Shown: piece after piece, positions 1-11,688 of the stretch
Position numbering within the stretch: the first letter of the stretch is position 1
Layout: each line of letters opens with the position of its first letter
NCBI GenBank assembly: GCA_964639295.1
Contig: CAZXDT010000001.1
Coordinates: 181,068-245,067 of the forward strand
Length of the DNA: 64,000 bases
Direction of reading: 5' to 3'
From: an uncultured Candidatus Saccharibacteria bacterium
Lineage (GTDB): Bacteria; Patescibacteriota; Saccharimonadia; Saccharimonadales; JALRHH01
The notes under the pieces: model-generated
Seen by the model: only the letters and a program-made list of their open reading frames with translations
The model's database searches: none
What the model was told of the DNA's origin: nothing
Made by a program: the position numbers and the translations under genes

Positions 1-252
1 AATGTTTCCGTAATGCGTAAGCAGCCGGCTTGATACAAGTGTCTTTAGATCACTTTTGCCAGGCAAAAATGTCAACTCACTGACGCTAAACAACTCTATG
101 CCACCGGCAAGCTTGGATTTAGGCCGACGCACGCCTTTAGCAATCAAACTAATCTTCCCTTGGTCTGGCATTAAAACTGTAATAATACGATCCGCCTCCT
201 GGTAATCCCGTCTAGACAGAACTATACCTGTAGTTACAACCTGTGGTTTCAT
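1..252 (-). CDS. recO: DNA repair protein RecO, N-terminal 84 codons (partial; C-terminus lies beyond window start)
   Basis: Absent from ORF track because no stop lies in the window. Reverse translation from ATG at 252..250 gives MKPQVVTTGIVLSRRDYQEADRIITVLMPDQGKISLIAKGVRRPKSKLAGGIELFSVSEL..., matching the RecO N-terminal OB-fold pattern (GIVL.R.DY.E.D.I...L....GK....AKG.R.P.S.L). Confidence 0.75.
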   Translation of the reverse strand, partial: MKPQVVTTGIVLSRRDYQEADRIITVLMPDQGKISLIAKGVRRPKSKLAGGIELFSVSELTFLPGKSDLKTLVSSRLLTHYGNI

Positions 253-394
253 ATCACAAGTTTCGCATCACAGTGACCTGCTGTCCAGCGGAGCTAGCCA
301 CCCGCCACTGTTCTTGGGACATAAGCAGATTTTCTTCTGCGATCCTCATTTCACCGTACCATTTGTACGGCTCACTCCGGTTCTCGAAGAGAAA

Positions 395-787
395 TCAGCT
401 TCTGCCCTCAAGTGCGGAACTTGTGACGTCCTCTACGGCATTTACAAGTTGCTTGAGGTTGGTGGCTGGTTTATACAAACAATCTACAATACCAAAATTT
501 TGCATCATTTCTTTTGTGATCTGGAGTGAGGCTGGTGGAACCATTGTTAGTAAAATAACAGGGATAGTTTGCCACTCAGGATAGCTTCTAAACTCATATA
601 GAAACTCGATCCCGTTGTGCGATGCCAATTGTAGTTCTAGTAATATAACGTCTGGTTTTGACTCATCAGCTGAATGCACAGCATCCTGCGCGTGTGCAAC
701 AACTTGCACCACATGGCTCGCCTGTTCTAGGGCCTGCTTGTAAGTGCCCGCAAGTTTTTTGTCCGGTTCTATGAGTAATACATTCAT
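395..787 (-). CDS. Stand-alone response-regulator receiver domain, atypical (Glu at phospho-acceptor position)
   Basis: 130 aa. Receiver layout LLIEPD...DVILLELQL...PVILLTM...YKP with canonical spacing (E51/T81/K106), but the DxxLLD acceptor Asp reads Glu (GAA, 635..637). No output domain. TAATG overlap with the upstream gene at 787. Confidence 0.75.
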   Translation of the reverse strand: MNVLLIEPDKKLAGTYKQALEQASHVVQVVAHAQDAVHSADESKPDVILLELQLASHNGIEFLYEFRSYPEWQTIPVILLTMVPPASLQITKEMMQNFGIVDCLYKPATNLKQLVNAVEDVTSSALEGRS

Positions 788-1494
788 TAAACTAATTGTA
801 ACTGTTGCGAAGGGAGGAGAGTTGCGCCGAGCCCTGAAAGTTTGTTGTGACGTGATAGATGCAGGGGTGCTTCCATGTTCTTGAGCAAGCTGTCTGCTAC
901 AAAGATACCCGCACCGCTTGTTGGAGTAAGGGCTGGTACTGCCTGACGAGCACTGCCAAATAATGCCATGCCTCTGTGCAAGCTGTCGCTATTAAGTCCT
1001 TCTTGGTTGCCAAAGATTCCTGCCACAAGTCCACGGCTACTACGGTGTGCACCAAGGACTATTTTGTGCCTTTGATCTGCTGCTGGTGCAGATTCTATGA
1101 ATGCATAGCCGAGTGTTGCAAAGGCAGATTCTAGACTTTGGCGGTGGGCCATAACTGGTTCATACCGCCCACTGAGGTGTACCTCTAAATCACAGTCGTA
1201 TTGTTTGGCTAATTGGTTAAGGTGATGTGCAGTATCTTGCAACATTGCACTGACAGAAACCGGTTCTAGCTCAAGTAATGGCAACGCCTGCAGCTGCACA
1301 CTCAATAAGTAGCTATCGACCAGTCGTAGTGCCATGTCTGCAGTGTAACTGATGGAACTAAGCGCCGTAGCATCTTGGTTTGAGTGTGCAAGTTCAGCCT
1401 CGCGGGCAATTTGTAACAGAGGTAGTTTTAACTGTTCGGCAAGCGCTTTAAGCAAGCGTTCCTGTGCTTCGTTACTAAATGCCGCTGTTCCCAA
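787..1494 (-). CDS. Degenerate histidine-kinase-like protein (DHp + HATPase_c-like, catalytic residues substituted), soluble
   Basis: 235 aa, TTG start. LAEQLKLPLLQI aligns to the H-box SHELRTPLxxI with His->Glu (1435..1437). The downstream layout follows HATPase_c, but the N box (ATLGYAFIE), G1 (FGNQEG) and G2 (SGAGIFV) are eroded. No TM segment. Confidence 0.5.
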   Translation of the reverse strand: MGTAAFSNEAQERLLKALAEQLKLPLLQIAREAELAHSNQDATALSSISYTADMALRLVDSYLLSVQLQALPLLELEPVSVSAMLQDTAHHLNQLAKQYDCDLEVHLSGRYEPVMAHRQSLESAFATLGYAFIESAPAADQRHKIVLGAHRSSRGLVAGIFGNQEGLNSDSLHRGMALFGSARQAVPALTPTSGAGIFVADSLLKNMEAPLHLSRHNKLSGLGATLLPSQQLQLV

Positions 1495-1600
1495 AACCTA
1501 GTACCCTCTCGCAAATATATTGCCTATATTGTACACCTAGAGACCATAAAAATACTAAAATATAATTCGGTATTGAACAATAATGTTGTATTGCTTGTGG

Positions 1601-2344
1601 TTACGGGACGAAAGTTAGGTTAGCTAAGATAATACTATCAAAGTCACCTCTAAATTGAGCGGATTCAGTAGAGATCTCTATTGTTTTGTCGCGAAGTGGG
1701 AACAGTACCATGCTGTCTTGTTGGCCCGTGTTGATCTCGCCGTCAATTCGTGTGCCGACAACGCCTTCAACCTTTGCTGGCTTGAATGGTGATGCCTTAA
1801 CCTTACCGGTCTTTATCTTGCTTTCAAACTGTTTGAGTTCATCTGCGTATTGTTTTGACACGACTCTTACGCGCAATGCATAGTCTGTGCCTGACAGGAG
1901 ACCCGGCACGAAGCCTGGGTGGAAGTAACCATCAACCGGCGTACCACCTGTAGCTGTGGCTTCTGTTACAAACGCACTCCAAGTCCTAGGATACTTAATA
2001 TTCAATGTGCCGAAGGAAGCGGGACCTTTGTATTCATTCAATGGGTTTTTATACTTCTCTGTAAATTCTTTATCCTTGGCAGTTGTAGTTTCTTGTTGCG
2101 CGATGGTAACTGCACTACTTATCTTCTTATCTGAGTTATTCTTGTAGTCCTGCATACCGGCAAATGCCCACACACCGAACCCGGCAGCTGCTAAAAATAA
2201 TATAACCGCTAAGACAAGTGGAATAATCAGCCCGTTAAAAGATTTCTTCGGCTGTCCAACAGGCATACCACCATATTGCTGGGGTTGTGGATGCTGTTGC
2301 TGTTGTGCGACTCCATACTTAGGAGCAAATGGATCTTGATTCAT
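1601..2344 (-). CDS. Membrane-anchored hypothetical protein (Gln/Pro-rich N-terminus, one TM, extracytoplasmic domain)
   Basis: 247-aa ORF. N-terminus QQQQHPQPQQYGG, TM LIIPLVLAVILFLAAAGFGVWAF. I recognise no family. Confidence 0.5.
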   Translation of the reverse strand: MNQDPFAPKYGVAQQQQHPQPQQYGGMPVGQPKKSFNGLIIPLVLAVILFLAAAGFGVWAFAGMQDYKNNSDKKISSAVTIAQQETTTAKDKEFTEKYKNPLNEYKGPASFGTLNIKYPRTWSAFVTEATATGGTPVDGYFHPGFVPGLLSGTDYALRVRVVSKQYADELKQFESKIKTGKVKASPFKPAKVEGVVGTRIDGEINTGQQDSMVLFPLRDKTIEISTESAQFRGDFDSIILANLTFVP

Positions 2345-2387
2345 TGTGCTTATGGTAACCCAAATACCCTATTCACCGCAAGAGCTA

Positions 2388-2912
2388 CTAGTACGGAAGC
2401 TGCTGGGCGTGGTTATTATCAGCAGGCATGTAATGATAGAGGAAGATGCCTTCCTTCTGTGCTGCAACTTCTTTATCAGGAATCTTGAATGCAAAGCTCA
2501 CGAGTTTGACAGGTTTGCTAGTTTCTTGAATAATCTTTTTATCCAACCTATCCATGTATTTTGGTAATAAAAATACGAATACCCCGTCTGCGTCTGGTAA
2601 AGTCCGCCGCCAAAAGTTACCCCAAATAATTTTCACCTGCCCCGGGTATCGCCGCGTTCTCATCCAAGCTGTAAAAGCTAGTATTGGGTTGAGTTCGTAA
2701 CCAGTCACATATAGGCCCCTCTCGGCCGCAGCAATAATAACCTTACCGTCCCCACACCCTAGCTCAAGTAGGTGCTGGCCTTCTGTCAGATCAACTAAAT
2801 CTAGTGCGACATCAACCTGGGATGAAAGTGATGGTAGATACGGAGCACCAAAGAACACCACAACACCAAAGATTATTACGACCGCCCCAACCGCAATTAG
2901 CACGATTTCCAT
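2388..2912 (-). CDS. Class I SAM-dependent methyltransferase with N-terminal TM helix
   Basis: 174 aa. TM MEIVLIAVGAVVIIFGVVVFF, then SAM motif I LLELGCGDGKVIIAAAERG. Confidence 0.65.
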   Translation of the reverse strand: MEIVLIAVGAVVIIFGVVVFFGAPYLPSLSSQVDVALDLVDLTEGQHLLELGCGDGKVIIAAAERGLYVTGYELNPILAFTAWMRTRRYPGQVKIIWGNFWRRTLPDADGVFVFLLPKYMDRLDKKIIQETSKPVKLVSFAFKIPDKEVAAQKEGIFLYHYMPADNNHAQQLPY

Positions 2913-3110
2913 CTACTTGTCGAAGCTCGCCTTTAGCTTGGTAACAGTGTTCTCGGCATCCTTAAGGTATGCCTCAAGCTGTTTTGAGATAGCAATTCCC
3001 CGTTCATATAATTTGAGCGCTTCATCTATATCAAAATCATCAGTTTGCAGTTGAGCCAAAATTGTGTCCAATTCTTTACTCAGTTCCTGGTAGTTTATCG
3101 CCTTAGTCAT
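2913..3110 (-). CDS. xseB: Exodeoxyribonuclease VII small subunit
   Basis: 65 aa. LSKELDTILAQLQTDDFDIDEALKLYERGIAISKQLEAYL is typical XseB. Immediately downstream of xseA. Confidence 0.85.
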   Translation of the reverse strand: MTKAINYQELSKELDTILAQLQTDDFDIDEALKLYERGIAISKQLEAYLKDAENTVTKLKASFDK

Positions 3111-3119
3111 AGTGTTATT

Positions 3120-4238
3120 CTACTGTATCCCTTCCACTTTTGTTTCAATAGTGCCATCTTGTAGCTCAATATTCAGTCTATCGCCTGGTTTCACTCCCCT
3201 ACTACTACGAACAACGCTCCCCTGCCCAGTTCTAATAATTGCGTAACCCCGTTTCATAGCTGCAGTTGGACTCAGTGCTACCAGTAAATCACCTCTGTTT
3301 CTCAATAAATCAAGCGCACGATTTACGAGTGTTTGCGTAGCATCACTCAGTTGCTTCATGGATTCTTGGACTTGCTTGTTAGCATCCTGAACACGCTGCT
3401 GCAATATACGGAGTAAGTCTTTTTGAGTGTCGGCTAATACGGCTAATTCGTGCTTTTTATCAGGGGTAAGCATTTCTGCGGCGTTACTTGGTGTGCTTGC
3501 CCGGCGATCGGCTGCCAGTTCCGCCAAGCTAATATCAACTTCGTGACCAATTGCCACGATTGTTGGGATACGACTACCAGCCACAGCTCGAGTCACCTGC
3601 TCTGTACTAAACGCTGCTAGATCTTCAGCGCTACCGCCGCCTCTTGTCACAACTAATACGTCCACTGGTTCTGCATGCGTATTAAAATGCTCAATTGCGG
3701 CAACAATTTGCGCCGGCGCAACCTCGCCCTGGACTTGGACATCTGCTAGCTGAATATCTACGCCACTCCAGCGAGCCCCTAAAATCTTAATAAAGTCATT
3801 GTAGGCTGCTGACTCGCCGGATGCGATCAAGCCTATACGCTGAGGTGGATATGGCAGTGATCGTTTACGTGAGTCGTCAAACAGACCTTCGGCTGTAAGT
3901 TTGGCCTGGAGCAACGCAGCGGCTTTTTTAAGTGAGCCCTCACCCACTGGCTGCATATTCTGCACAGTAACACTAAACCCAAACTGATTGTGAAGCCTGG
4001 GCACACCACGTACCCGTAGCATCAGTCCATCTTCAAGCGGACCAGATAACTGGTATATAGTGCCAAAGAATTTAACACTACTAAAGTCGTCCTTCAGATC
4101 AAAATATACCCACTTGTTTTTGCTTATTCGAAAGTTAGCAAGTTCTCCTTCGATCGTTACTGAAGGATACGCATATTCAAGCGTCTGGTTAAAAACTCCT
4201 ACAAAGTCAGAGACAGATAATACGAGGTCATCGTTCAT
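3120..4238 (-). CDS. xseA: Exodeoxyribonuclease VII large subunit
   Basis: 372 aa. N-terminal OB fold (VSDFVGVFNQTLEYAYPSVTIEGELANF), catalytic core (VLVVTRGGGSAEDLAAF, IPTIVAIGHEVD) and C-terminal coiled coil. Confidence 0.9.
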   Translation of the reverse strand: MNDDLVLSVSDFVGVFNQTLEYAYPSVTIEGELANFRISKNKWVYFDLKDDFSSVKFFGTIYQLSGPLEDGLMLRVRGVPRLHNQFGFSVTVQNMQPVGEGSLKKAAALLQAKLTAEGLFDDSRKRSLPYPPQRIGLIASGESAAYNDFIKILGARWSGVDIQLADVQVQGEVAPAQIVAAIEHFNTHAEPVDVLVVTRGGGSAEDLAAFSTEQVTRAVAGSRIPTIVAIGHEVDISLAELAADRRASTPSNAAEMLTPDKKHELAVLADTQKDLLRILQQRVQDANKQVQESMKQLSDATQTLVNRALDLLRNRGDLLVALSPTAAMKRGYAIIRTGQGSVVRSSRGVKPGDRLNIELQDGTIETKVEGIQ

Positions 4239-5286
4239 CGGGCACTTCCGCGCCCTTTCTGAGGGCCATTTGGTACAAAATCCAACCTGGTACTATTTGC
4301 ACGCTGATACCCAACACACGGTACATAACTGTCACAGGGATACTGAGCGCAGGTGGCACGCCTGCAAGAGCTAACACACCAGTCATGAGTGCTTCATACA
4401 TACCAACTCCACCAGGCAGCACTGAAATAAGCCCCGCAAAGTTTGCAATTGCATATGCCAAAATCACCGCCCCTATGTTCACCCATTCACCAAAAGCGAT
4501 ATAGACAACATATATAGTCATTAGTTCTGTGAATCCTGTTAAGAATCCAAACCAAACGCCTTTTTTAACAATTTCGCGGTTCTCCTGGATAGTCACATAA
4601 CTGCGATGCATCTCATCCATAGCACCCCGTAATTTTTCTAGACTGATGGTCTCTGTTTTGCCTTTTCTAAACAGACCGATAGCCCTGTTTAGTGTGCGTG
4701 CCAAGAATGCAGAAGTAGTGTTGATCCGAGTGTTATCACCTACGATATATGCGACAAGCATCGTGCCAAAAACAATCAGCGTAGCCAGGAACGTAGCCAC
4801 CATAATCACAAAGTTGTTTGCCTTGCCCATAATCGCGAGCGCAAAAATACCAATAACCAATAGTACTAGGAAGCCTAAATAACCCATGAAGAATCGTAAC
4901 AACTGCACAACAGTAGCCGTACCAGACCGTACGCCATATTGCTTCATACGGACAGAAAAGTATGAGAAGCCAGATATACCCCCGCTCGGGAAAACATGAT
5001 TCACAAAGTTCAGCTCAAGCGAAATCCTAAACAGAGCTTTATAAGATATCTTGTGCCCTAACTTCTTAAACAGTGTCCTGTACATTCGGGTATACGAATC
5101 GTAGTTCCATATCTGAATTGGGACAATGAGTAGCAGCGCCCACCAATGTACGCTCTTGATAGTACGTAGGGTCTCTAGGATTTCGTCTTTAATCGCAAAG
5201 ATTAGAATGCCCAACGCCAGAAGCGTAATGACATTAAGGATTGCTCTCCAGTTCCGTGCAAAAAATGACCGTATGCGGTGTCTCAT
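4228..5286 (-). CDS. UPF0104 / lysylphosphatidylglycerol-synthase-TM-region family membrane protein (flippase-like)
   Basis: 352 aa, polytopic. C-terminal LPGGVGMYEALMTGVLALAGVPPALSIPVTVMYRVL resembles the UPF0104 signature. Confidence 0.55.
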   Translation of the reverse strand: MRHRIRSFFARNWRAILNVITLLALGILIFAIKDEILETLRTIKSVHWWALLLIVPIQIWNYDSYTRMYRTLFKKLGHKISYKALFRISLELNFVNHVFPSGGISGFSYFSVRMKQYGVRSGTATVVQLLRFFMGYLGFLVLLVIGIFALAIMGKANNFVIMVATFLATLIVFGTMLVAYIVGDNTRINTTSAFLARTLNRAIGLFRKGKTETISLEKLRGAMDEMHRSYVTIQENREIVKKGVWFGFLTGFTELMTIYVVYIAFGEWVNIGAVILAYAIANFAGLISVLPGGVGMYEALMTGVLALAGVPPALSIPVTVMYRVLGISVQIVPGWILYQMALRKGAEVPDER

Positions 5287-5314
5287 ATGAAAACAAGTAT
5301 ACCACTGTTATACT
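5286..5314 (+). promoter_or_regulatory. Putative extended -10 promoter of the 5322 gene
   Basis: TATGAA-N17-(TGt)TATACT, with the -10 at 5309..5314 only 7 nt before ATG 5322. Confidence 0.35.
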
Positions 5315-11232: not shown

Positions 11233-11652
11233 CTATAGACCGAGGTGATGTTTGACGCGGTCTACGACGTCTGCGATGACAACTTGTGACTTCACAAGGT
11301 AATCATCAACTCCAAGGCTCTCTGCGCGCTGGCGGTCACTATCCTGACCAAGAGCGGTCAGCATAATAACCTTCACATTGATGGTCTCTGGGGTGTTACG
11401 AAGGATGTCTAAGACATCAAAGCCGCTGACTTTAGGCATCATGACATCAAGCAGAATCAGGTCTGGTCGGTAAGCCAACGCTGTTGATAGCGCTTCTTCA
11501 CCGTTTGGTACACGGCGGATATCAAAACCTTCTGCCTGAAGACGTGTTTGATAGACACTCGCGAGTGCGTCATCATCCTCTACTAATAAGATCTTTTTTG
11601 CTTGTGGTGCCGCTTGAGGTGCGACAGGTGTTTGTTGAGTGTTATCATCCAT
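11233..11652 (-). CDS. Stand-alone CheY-like response-regulator receiver (canonical)
   Basis: ILLVEDDD...DLILLDVMMP...VIMLTA...DDYLVKS. Start moved to MDDNTQQ (11652) because a promoter sits 7 nt upstream. Track ORF ran to 11688. Confidence 0.8.
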   Translation of the reverse strand: MDDNTQQTPVAPQAAPQAKKILLVEDDDALASVYQTRLQAEGFDIRRVPNGEEALSTALAYRPDLILLDVMMPKVSGFDVLDILRNTPETINVKVIMLTALGQDSDRQRAESLGVDDYLVKSQVVIADVVDRVKHHLGL

Positions 11653-11659
11653 ACCTGTT

Positions 11660-11688
11660 ATGCTAACGCATAAAGGGGTAAGTGACAA
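11660..11688 (-). promoter_or_regulatory. Sigma70-type promoter, leaderless geometry
   Basis: Minus strand TTGTCA-N17-TAGCAT, then 7 nt to ATG 11652. Confidence 0.45.

Follow-up and report, generated by a model that had tools for sequence, protein, structure and literature searches.

A translationally coupled pair of kinase-like and receiver-like genes without canonical phosphorylation residues is conserved across Saccharibacteria

Introduction

What can a histidine kinase and its response regulator still do once both have lost the residues that carry the phosphoryl group? The question is raised by two adjacent genes in a 64,000-nt stretch of DNA from an uncultured Candidatus Saccharibacteria bacterium (contig CAZXDT010000001.1), which we refer to as the window. 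One gene encodes a 235-aa kinase-like protein and the other a 130-aa receiver-like protein; the pair, recO, and the genes upstream all lie on the (-) strand. An initial annotation had read the two genes as a two-component pair with glutamate at both phosphorylation sites, and had called it either fossilized or phosphorylation-independent. On balance, we favor the view that the pair is a phosphorylation-independent module that derives from a HisKA-type kinase and an OmpR/KdpE-like receiver and acts via protein contacts. Below we describe what each protein has kept and lost, how the pair is conserved, how genes at the same position behave in a cultured relative, and how the pair compares with known systems. 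The coordinates of all features are collected in Table 1.

Ancestry of the kinase-like protein

The 235-aa protein clearly descends from a HisKA-type histidine kinase, as judged by its fold and by profile-profile alignment. Its AF2 model (predicted local distance difference test, pLDDT, 81; predicted template modeling score, pTM, 0.80) has two helices, spanning residues 8-39 and 42-70, followed by a mixed alpha/beta domain. This is the layout of HisKA-type kinases, in which a dimerization and histidine phosphotransfer (DHp) hairpin precedes an alpha/beta catalytic and ATP-binding (CA) domain. In Foldseek, the model aligned over its full length with HK853, EnvZ-type, CusS, WalK, and other kinase cores; the best PDB match was the DHp-CA core of HK853 (template modeling score, TM, 0.72), and further matches included the pseudokinases DivL (TM 0.72-0.75) and RetS. 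We performed hhalign with a 141-sequence family alignment against the Escherichia coli PhoR/EnvZ/CpxA cores, which gave a probability of 97% and an E value of 1.7e-10 over 229 of the 235 columns. When searched against PDB sequences, the family profile matched the CpxA DHp domain and placed “ALAEQLKLPL” opposite “DISHELRTPL.” These results bear out the histidine-kinase architecture that had been proposed for this protein. The best profile match was PDB 4biz, a CpxA chain with Glu at the phospho-His position (“DISEELRTPL”), and it is this Glu that ranks 4biz above the wild-type CpxA chains.

Single-sequence domain searches return far less. A Pfam scan of the window protein found no HisKA or HATPase_c domain above the cut-off; among homologues, HisKA gave weak matches only (11/33 and 7/141), and HATPase_c matched 0/33 and 1/141. 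NCBIfam PhoR matched weakly (E value of 3e-4) across residues 28-216, a span that stops short of Glu20. The protein contains no sensor, transmembrane, HAMP, or PAS segment and is soluble, consisting of the DHp and CA domains only. Its TTG start codon is the first possible start past an in-frame TAG.

Loss of catalytic residues in the kinase-like protein

The column of the phospho-acceptor His is occupied by Glu20. The H-box reads A-E-Q-L-K-L-P in place of the canonical S-H-E-L-R-T-P, and in hhalign Glu20 stands opposite PhoR His213; the Glu that had been assigned to this site thus holds its place both in the CpxA profile alignment and in hhalign. Across 384 family proteins, the column contains E in 312, D in 38, Q in 14, Y in 2, and the canonical H in only 3. 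The HisKA phosphatase motif E/D-x-x-T/N that should follow the His is also missing, the window protein having Q21 and L24 in E20-Q-L-K-L and the family having mostly Q at H+1 and mostly L at H+4. No other His is invariant across the family, as H117, H150, and H216 vary to N, D, Y, or F.

The nucleotide-binding site is similarly altered. In the N-box-equivalent helix, hhalign puts Ala131 in the column of the Mg-binding Asn, where the 384 family proteins have A (152), S (146), V (36), T (18), G (14), or N (3). The G1 motif “DNGPGI” falls opposite “GNQEGL,” with Gly162 in the column of the adenine-binding Asp (G 156, S 135, A 42, T 24, and D 10 in the family), and the window protein therefore has neither the N-box Asn nor the Asp-x-Gly-x-Gly of G1. 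The G2 motif “GGSGLGL,” in turn, falls opposite “PTSGAGI”; its last two glycines are kept and its first is lost in the window copy, and the last position, Gly196, is G in 356/384 family proteins. With the key Mg-ATP side chains gone and two G2 glycines left, the ATP site is eroded and G2 is partly recognizable. The initial annotation had found none of the three boxes recognizable, which is correct for N and G1 but goes too far for G2.

The receiver-like protein

The 130-aa protein is readily assigned to the receiver fold. It scores 57.5 bits against Pfam Response_reg (cut-off 30.2), and its AF2 model (pLDDT 87) has the five strand-helix units of a (beta-alpha)5 fold. The best Foldseek matches are RR468 (TM 0.74-0.76), DivK, KdpE, and PhoB, and the best PDB match of the receiver profile is the KdpE receiver (E value of 1.6e-12), which places the domain closest to the KdpE and PhoB types. 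The profile check against HisKA, HATPase_c, and Response_reg that had been suggested for the pair thus yields a receiver domain and no kinase domain above cut-off. Homologues are 121-134 aa long and consist of the receiver domain only, without the C-terminal winged-helix DNA-binding domain, though the Joint Genome Institute (JGI) labels them OmpR/PhoB-family response regulators.

Two of the five catalytic residues are lost, as Pro8 and Glu51 replace the metal-binding and the acceptor Asp. Specifically, the first acidic position of the quintet (DD1) holds Glu7, which is acceptable; the second (DD2), which corresponds to the Mg-binding Asp (CheY D13, PhoB D10), holds Pro8; the acceptor position holds Glu51; and Thr81 and Lys106 are retained in the T and K columns. 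Alignments with KdpE, LuxO, RcpA, CheY, and PhoB agree with the earlier assignment of Glu to the acceptor column and with the retention of Thr81 and Lys106, and the Pro8 lesion at the second metal-binding position is an addition to it. On these residues, the protein is an aspartate-less pseudo-receiver by the definition in PMC12632262. The phospho-acceptor columns of the window pair thus contain neither His nor Asp, and the 235-aa partner is kinase-derived. The window receiver also bears an extra C-terminal “DVTSSALEGRS” that is missing from close homologues.

Conservation across Saccharibacteria

We fetched 80 loci from species representatives (L001-L080), which yield denominators of 78 to 80 depending on the column. 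The kinase-like gene is followed by the receiver-like gene, adjacent and on the same strand, in 80/80 loci, and both reading frames are intact in all 80 species at 44-75% identity, with many columns invariant. The stop-to-start gap ranges from -11 to +23 nt in 79/80 species, and the genes overlap in 33. The window pair shares one base in a TAATG stop/start overlap, which can be read directly from the sequence and couples the two genes translationally, as had been noted. Homologues are abundant beyond these loci: a large protein collection contained 1107 of the kinase-like protein and 433 of the receiver, and in a one-genome-per-species scan (GTDB) at least 206 genomes encoded a relative, nearly all of them titled Saccharibacteria or Saccharimonadales.

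The altered residues are themselves conserved in orthologues and are no chance feature of the window copy. Among the species representatives, Glu20, Lys23, and Pro25 of the kinase-like protein are each found in 80/80, and in the receiver Glu51 is found in 76/79 (Asp in 3), Pro8 in 79/80, Thr or Ser at Thr81 in 77/79, and Lys106 in 77/78. Conservation in the 235-aa protein peaks along DHp helix 1 near the H-box (R13-L35); elsewhere in the pair, it is highest in the active-site loops of the receiver, in helix alpha3 of the receiver, and in the kinase tail PSQQLQLV. Across 141 representatives, with identities as low as 33%, this tail has an invariant Q231 and nearly invariant S229 and L232. The tail-coding stretch (790..813) overlaps the region in which the receiver ribosome-binding site would be expected.

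Compared with the window copies, homologues of the kinase-like protein have a median identity of 51% and those of the receiver one of 47%, values comparable with those of xseA, recO, and other neighbors (flanking genes, 47% to 64%). Judging from the sequences, the pair is under purifying selection in every Saccharibacteria locus examined. With its fold kept, its catalytic function lost, and its sequence conserved by selection, the 235-aa protein falls within the definition of a pseudo-histidine kinase. A fossil, by which we mean decaying and functionless remnants of a lost two-component system, could be argued from the loss of the ATP pocket and of both catalytic sites and from the lack of a Pfam kinase match. 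We find that explanation hardly credible: it is refuted by frames that are intact and adjacent in 80/80 loci and by conservation equal to that of the neighboring genes, and the same-position genes of a cultured relative, described below, are called essential. Of the two descriptions that the initial annotation had offered, “fossilized” therefore falls, and “phosphorylation-independent module,” under purifying selection, is the right reading.

As far as sequence searches reach, the kinase-like proteins are a discrete family, far from ordinary kinases. An exhaustive profile search of 1.84 billion cluster representatives (50% identity) resulted in only 600 matches, and the best 150 of these all belonged to the kinase-like family, nearly all with lengths of 205-256 aa. 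A profile built from the most divergent members retrieved more of the same family and no match with a Pfam kinase domain. The family itself has no Pfam domain, and those members for which a source name was available are mostly called “hypothetical protein” and now and then histidine kinase or KdpD.

Both sites vary to some extent. Among distant members, a large subclade with “LSDDLSLPLLQIK” has Asp at position 20, and others have Gln or, in rare cases, His or Tyr. The three His-bearing kinase variants (P0377, P0359, and P0329) are encoded in the same string of genes, with CA domains that are just as degenerate and partner receivers with Glu. The three Asp-bearing receivers (L040, L048, and L078) keep Pro8 and have partner kinases with Glu20; they may represent a subclade with a reverted or ancestral state. 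Two of these three read “LLDPQI” and lack the conserved Gly24. As the His variants face Glu receivers and the Asp receivers face Glu20 kinases, the two sites do not co-vary. Evolution has preserved an acidic or polar side chain at these positions rather than one that can be phosphorylated.

These variants also bear on residual or non-canonical chemistry, i.e., group transfer by other residues or another nucleotide mode, or phosphatase action, as the function of the pair. The few members with His at position 20 could be taken to favor it, as could the partial G2 (GxG) and the persistence of the invariant glycines G159, G196, and G221. However, the His-bearing variants combine degenerate CA domains with Glu receivers, the family has no invariant His, the Mg-binding Asn and adenine-binding Asp are missing family-wide along with the phosphatase motif, and the receiver lacks both the acceptor and the metal-binding Asp. 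We consider such chemistry very improbable.

Same-position genes in Southlakia epibionticum

The gene string xseA-xseB-methyltransferase-membrane protein-pseudo-kinase-pseudo-receiver-recO is conserved across the class. Southlakia epibionticum ML1 has the string xseA-xseB-methyltransferase-hypothetical-“histidine kinase”-response regulator-recO, in which the “histidine kinase” is 708 bp long, equal to the window gene, the response regulator is 366 bp long, and the overlaps are 4 nt (PMC10633639). This is the one species with transposon sequencing (Tn-seq) data, and values for these genes are available from Tables S1 and S2 of that study as hidden Markov model calls (essential, ES; growth defect, GD; non-essential, NE) and normalized reads at T0/T1/T2. 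The “histidine kinase” SEML1_0246 is called GD/GD/ES (reads 91.9, 3.8, and 0.9) and the response regulator SEML1_0247 is called NE/GD/ES (reads 46.6, 0.75, and 0). The hypothetical gene upstream, SEML1_0245, whose product has a PsbP/Mog1p-like fold and which is marked as enriched in Patescibacteria, is called ES/ES/ES (reads 4.9, 0, and 0), and the downstream RecO gene, SEML1_0248, is called NE/NE/GD (reads 1265, 513, and 295, with 29 sites at T2) (PMC10633639). Since insertions in recO are tolerated, the depletion of the pair is not a matter of polarity. Growth on the host requires the same-position genes, and the module therefore probably serves a core rather than a dispensable function.

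S. epibionticum also contains a PAS sensor kinase with a receiver (SEML1_0318/0317) and an orphan receiver, all of which are non-essential (PMC10633639). Such genes matter for one alternative, DivL-like wiring, in which the pseudo-kinase reads the phosphorylation of a canonical receiver (e.g., the one at 11233..11688 in the window) or modulates a true kinase, and the pseudo-receiver is a competitor or adaptor. Canonical candidates for such partners exist in both genomes, the window having an orphan receiver. The model of the 235-aa protein is as close to DivL as to true kinases, and DHp helix 1 shows strong conservation; DivL senses DivK~P through its kinase core (PMC4211667), and Rhodobacter offers a case in which a receiver-like protein inhibits CckA directly (PMC9430884). 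Yet S. epibionticum can dispense with its canonical kinase and receivers, and the pair is called essential at T2, which argues that its role is not solely to tune them, and the strict adjacency of the two genes in the species representatives points to the neighbor as the primary partner. We regard DivL-like wiring as unlikely, though it is the likeliest of the rival readings.

A second alternative concerns the membrane protein encoded directly upstream of the pair in 74/80 loci. In the window, this single-pass protein has a Gln/Pro-rich N-terminal tail, and a Pfam scan of it gave no match; it is a conserved neighbor and possibly a partner of the pair. It could be a sensor arm that supplies the input domain, such that the three proteins form a phosphorylation-free transmembrane signaling or scaffolding unit. 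In its favor, the pseudo-kinase itself lacks any sensor or membrane segment, and SEML1_0245, with its PsbP/Mog1p-like outer domain, is essential at all time points. But the whole xseA-to-recO region is syntenic across the class, which makes adjacency weak evidence for a shared function, and the gap between the membrane protein and kinase genes is mostly 41-280 nt rather than an overlap, leaving synteny as the link. We judge this arrangement improbable, more so than DivL-like wiring.

Proposed mechanism

In the phosphorylation-independent module that we favor, no phosphoryl group would pass between the two proteins. The kinase-like protein would dimerize via its DHp domain and bind the receiver-like protein, in a complex that may be stable or ligand-modulated. 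By analogy with the PhoB D10A/D53E mutant discussed below, the receiver may be held in an active-like state in which Glu51 contacts Thr81 and Lys106 without metal; since Thr and Lys are kept and would hold a carboxylate instead of a phosphoryl group, such an active-like, metal-free lock is plausible. The initial annotation had described Glu as the classic phosphomimetic of both residues. For the receiver Asp, a partial mimicry of this kind is well documented: Glu is the commonest Asp replacement in pseudo-receivers and is able to activate receivers in part (PMC12632262). It is less established for the kinase His. Output would occur via protein contacts, and since neither protein has an output domain, partners would most plausibly be contacted by the surface of receiver helix alpha3 and by the C-terminal tail of the kinase-like protein. 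If the two proteins docked as HK853 and RR468 do, Glu20 would be predicted to face Glu51, Glu7, and Asp9, and this acidic cluster raises the possibility of an association that depends on a cation or other ligand.

Several points weigh against this proposal. We infer the mutual binding of the two proteins from the adjacency and coupling of their genes. Mutual information between them (average product correction, APC; an underpowered set of 78 pairs with an effective number of sequences, Neff, of 70) gave no signal at the canonical DHp/alpha1 interface, and the top scores were at most 0.28 between proteins and up to 0.53 within them. Kinases usually dock on receiver helix alpha1, and its exposed residues vary here. 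In the wider family, D, Q, H, and Y occur besides Glu at position 20, and receiver position 51 is Asp in three species; given this variation, it may be an acidic or polar character that counts at these sites, more than the Glu side chains themselves. Finally, the S. epibionticum genes are putative orthologues, assigned by position, length, and gene order, and the Pfam matches of SEML1_0246 (conditional/independent E values of 1.1e-9/6.9e-6 for HATPase_c and 5.3e-8/3.4e-4 for HisKA; PMC10633639), although weak, are somewhat stronger than any among the 141 family members tested.

A bolder version of the proposal is that the pair is an essential complex of dead two-component parts, in which a DHp-CA dimer and a permanently “on” receiver, possibly together with the upstream PsbP-like membrane protein, signal by binding and conformation, and in which the acidic cluster could give a response to a cation or ligand if docking is canonical. 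We hold this fuller picture to be speculative and rather doubtful.

Comparison with known systems

The closest described case for the kinase-like protein is PsmA of Streptomyces venezuelae (PMC12963549). PsmA likewise has a HisKA-type core with Glu in place of the H-box His (D, Q, V, or Y in orthologues), unconserved ATP motifs, and no phosphatase motif; no autokinase activity was detected for it, and it acts by contact with DivIVA. Unlike the window protein, it is a large hybrid in which an interaction region at the N terminus and an intrinsically disordered region accompany a fused receiver with its Asp intact, and it is confined to Streptomycetaceae. The pair described here is instead a minimal 235-aa DHp-CA protein beside a separate Asp-less receiver, and we do not claim a sequence-family link between the two. 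DivL of Caulobacter crescentus (PMC4211667, PDB 4q20), a top structural match, also uses its core as a binding module and has its phospho-His replaced. However, DivL has Tyr at the site, is membrane-anchored, contains PAS domains, binds canonical DivK~P, and controls the true kinase CckA, and its partner is not an adjacently encoded pseudo-receiver.

On the receiver side, the pseudo-receivers ChxR, plant pseudo-response regulators (PRRs), Rim15p, and FrzS (PMC12632262) share a Response_reg domain without the acceptor Asp and phosphorylation-independent activity. Most known pseudo-receivers carry an output domain, whereas the one in the window stands alone and is coupled to a dead kinase-like gene. 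Among the structural matches of the receiver is PDB 2jb9, titled as the PhoB “constitutively-active double mutant D10A and D53E.” D10 and D53 of PhoB align with Pro8 and Glu51, and in both proteins the Mg-binding Asp is non-acidic, the acceptor is Glu, and Thr and Lys are kept. The PhoB variant is a laboratory mutant of a DNA-binding regulator; the window state is natural and conserved, and the conformation it adopts may be the active one. The top structural match for both members of the pair is HK853-RR468 of Thermotoga maritima (PDB 3dge), which also joins a cytoplasmic DHp-CA core to a single-domain receiver but retains His260, Asp53, and intact N, G1, and G2 boxes, and transfers phosphate. 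HK853 also has a membrane sensor part.

Pseudo-kinases and pseudo-receivers are thus known and common kinds of protein, though how they work is poorly understood. Our literature search found no described pair of this family from Saccharibacteria or Patescibacteria, and no coupled minimal kinase/receiver pair with both phospho-sites lost across a lineage. According to a 2025 review, the His is missing from 0.9% of the HisKA domains sampled, and pseudo-receivers make up several percent of receivers; how they are activated is, in the words of the review, a mystery, and almost every pseudo-receiver it describes is an orphan. The pair is a natural minimal case of about 235 + 125 residues and makes a tractable model for modules that have lost phosphotransfer. 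It has been kept across an entire lineage of ultrasmall epibiotic bacteria, offers a lead into regulation in Saccharibacteria, a group now genetically tractable by natural transformation, and exposes an annotation gap in the form of a kinase-like family without a Pfam domain.

Features of the locus and the rest of the window

Table 1. Coordinates of the gene pair, its functional elements, and related genes in the window.
Feature	Coordinates	Strand	Description and basis
Pseudo-histidine kinase open reading frame (ORF), 235 aa	787..1494	(-)	DHp + CA only, TTG start; ORF, model, Foldseek, hhalign
DHp helical hairpin	1285..1473	(-)	Residues 8-70; model, conservation profile, CpxA alignment
Glu20 codon, phospho-acceptor His column	1435..1437	(-)	CpxA profile alignment, hhalign
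CA-like (GHKL-fold) domain	790..1266	(-)	Residues 77-235, without ATP-binding residues; model, Foldseek
N-box-equivalent helix	1093..1143	(-)	Residues 118-134; Mg-binding Asn column is Ala131 (hhalign)
G1-box equivalent “GNQEGL”	994..1011	(-)	Residues 162-167; adenine-binding Asp column is Gly162
G2-box remnant “TSGAGIF”	901..921	(-)	Residues 192-198; Gly194 and Gly196 kept
C-terminal tail PSQQLQLV	790..813	(-)	Conserved, unstructured in the model; pLDDT <50 at residues 233-235; possible docking peptide
TAATG stop/start overlap	785..789	(-)	Pair shares one base; couples both genes
Single-domain pseudo-receiver ORF, 130 aa	395..787	(-)	Without output domain; Pfam, AF2, Foldseek, PDB profile
Glu7-Pro8 replacing acidic pair	764..769	(-)	Pro8 on Mg-binding Asp (CheY D13, PhoB D10)
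Glu51 codon, phospho-acceptor Asp column	635..637	(-)	Alignments with KdpE, LuxO, RcpA, CheY, PhoB
Helix alpha3 E61-Y69 (EFLYEFRSY)	581..607	(-)	Most conserved receiver element; candidate partner-binding surface
Thr81 (545..547) and Lys106 (470..472), retained landmarks	470..547	(-)	T and K columns
recO, 5' part	1..252	(-)	Translation; RecO directly downstream in 75/80 loci; Pfam RecO_N in related loci
Single-pass membrane protein, 247 aa	1601..2344	(-)	Upstream of pair, 106-nt gap in window
Canonical stand-alone receiver	11233..11688	(-)	DD, D, T, K present: LLVEDDD, LILLDVMMP, IMLTA, YLVKS

The initial annotation had pointed to a canonical stand-alone receiver and to the absence of an intact kinase. 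The receiver was confirmed (Table 1); it lies just downstream of pyrG with no kinase gene nearby, and a motif scan of the whole 64-kb window found no canonical H-box or G1 motif. We also compared the pair with PADLOC defense models, which gave no match for the kinase-like protein and only generic receiver-type matches for the receiver.

Upstream, the conserved order extends through genes at 2388..5307 (-), with an LPG-synthase-like membrane protein preceding xseA. The pair is thereby located between two DNA-repair functions, exonuclease VII and RecO; this placement may reflect either function or the general synteny of small genomes. A promoter and terminator scan returned no more sites than shuffled sequence did, and we do not claim operon boundaries.

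Downstream, recO starts at 252 (-), and the pair is directly upstream of it, as previously described. In the window, a 142-nt non-coding spacer (253..394, (-) strand) separates the receiver stop codon from the recO start codon. This is unusual, as the receiver and recO genes abut (-21 to +22 nt) in 73/75 other species. An Rfam scan of positions 1..2600 returned nothing above threshold, and the spacer accordingly has no Rfam match; its sequence is unique within the window. The predicted RNA fold of the spacer is strong (-53.2 kcal/mol, z = -3.3) and includes a perfect CCGTAC/GTACGG hairpin.

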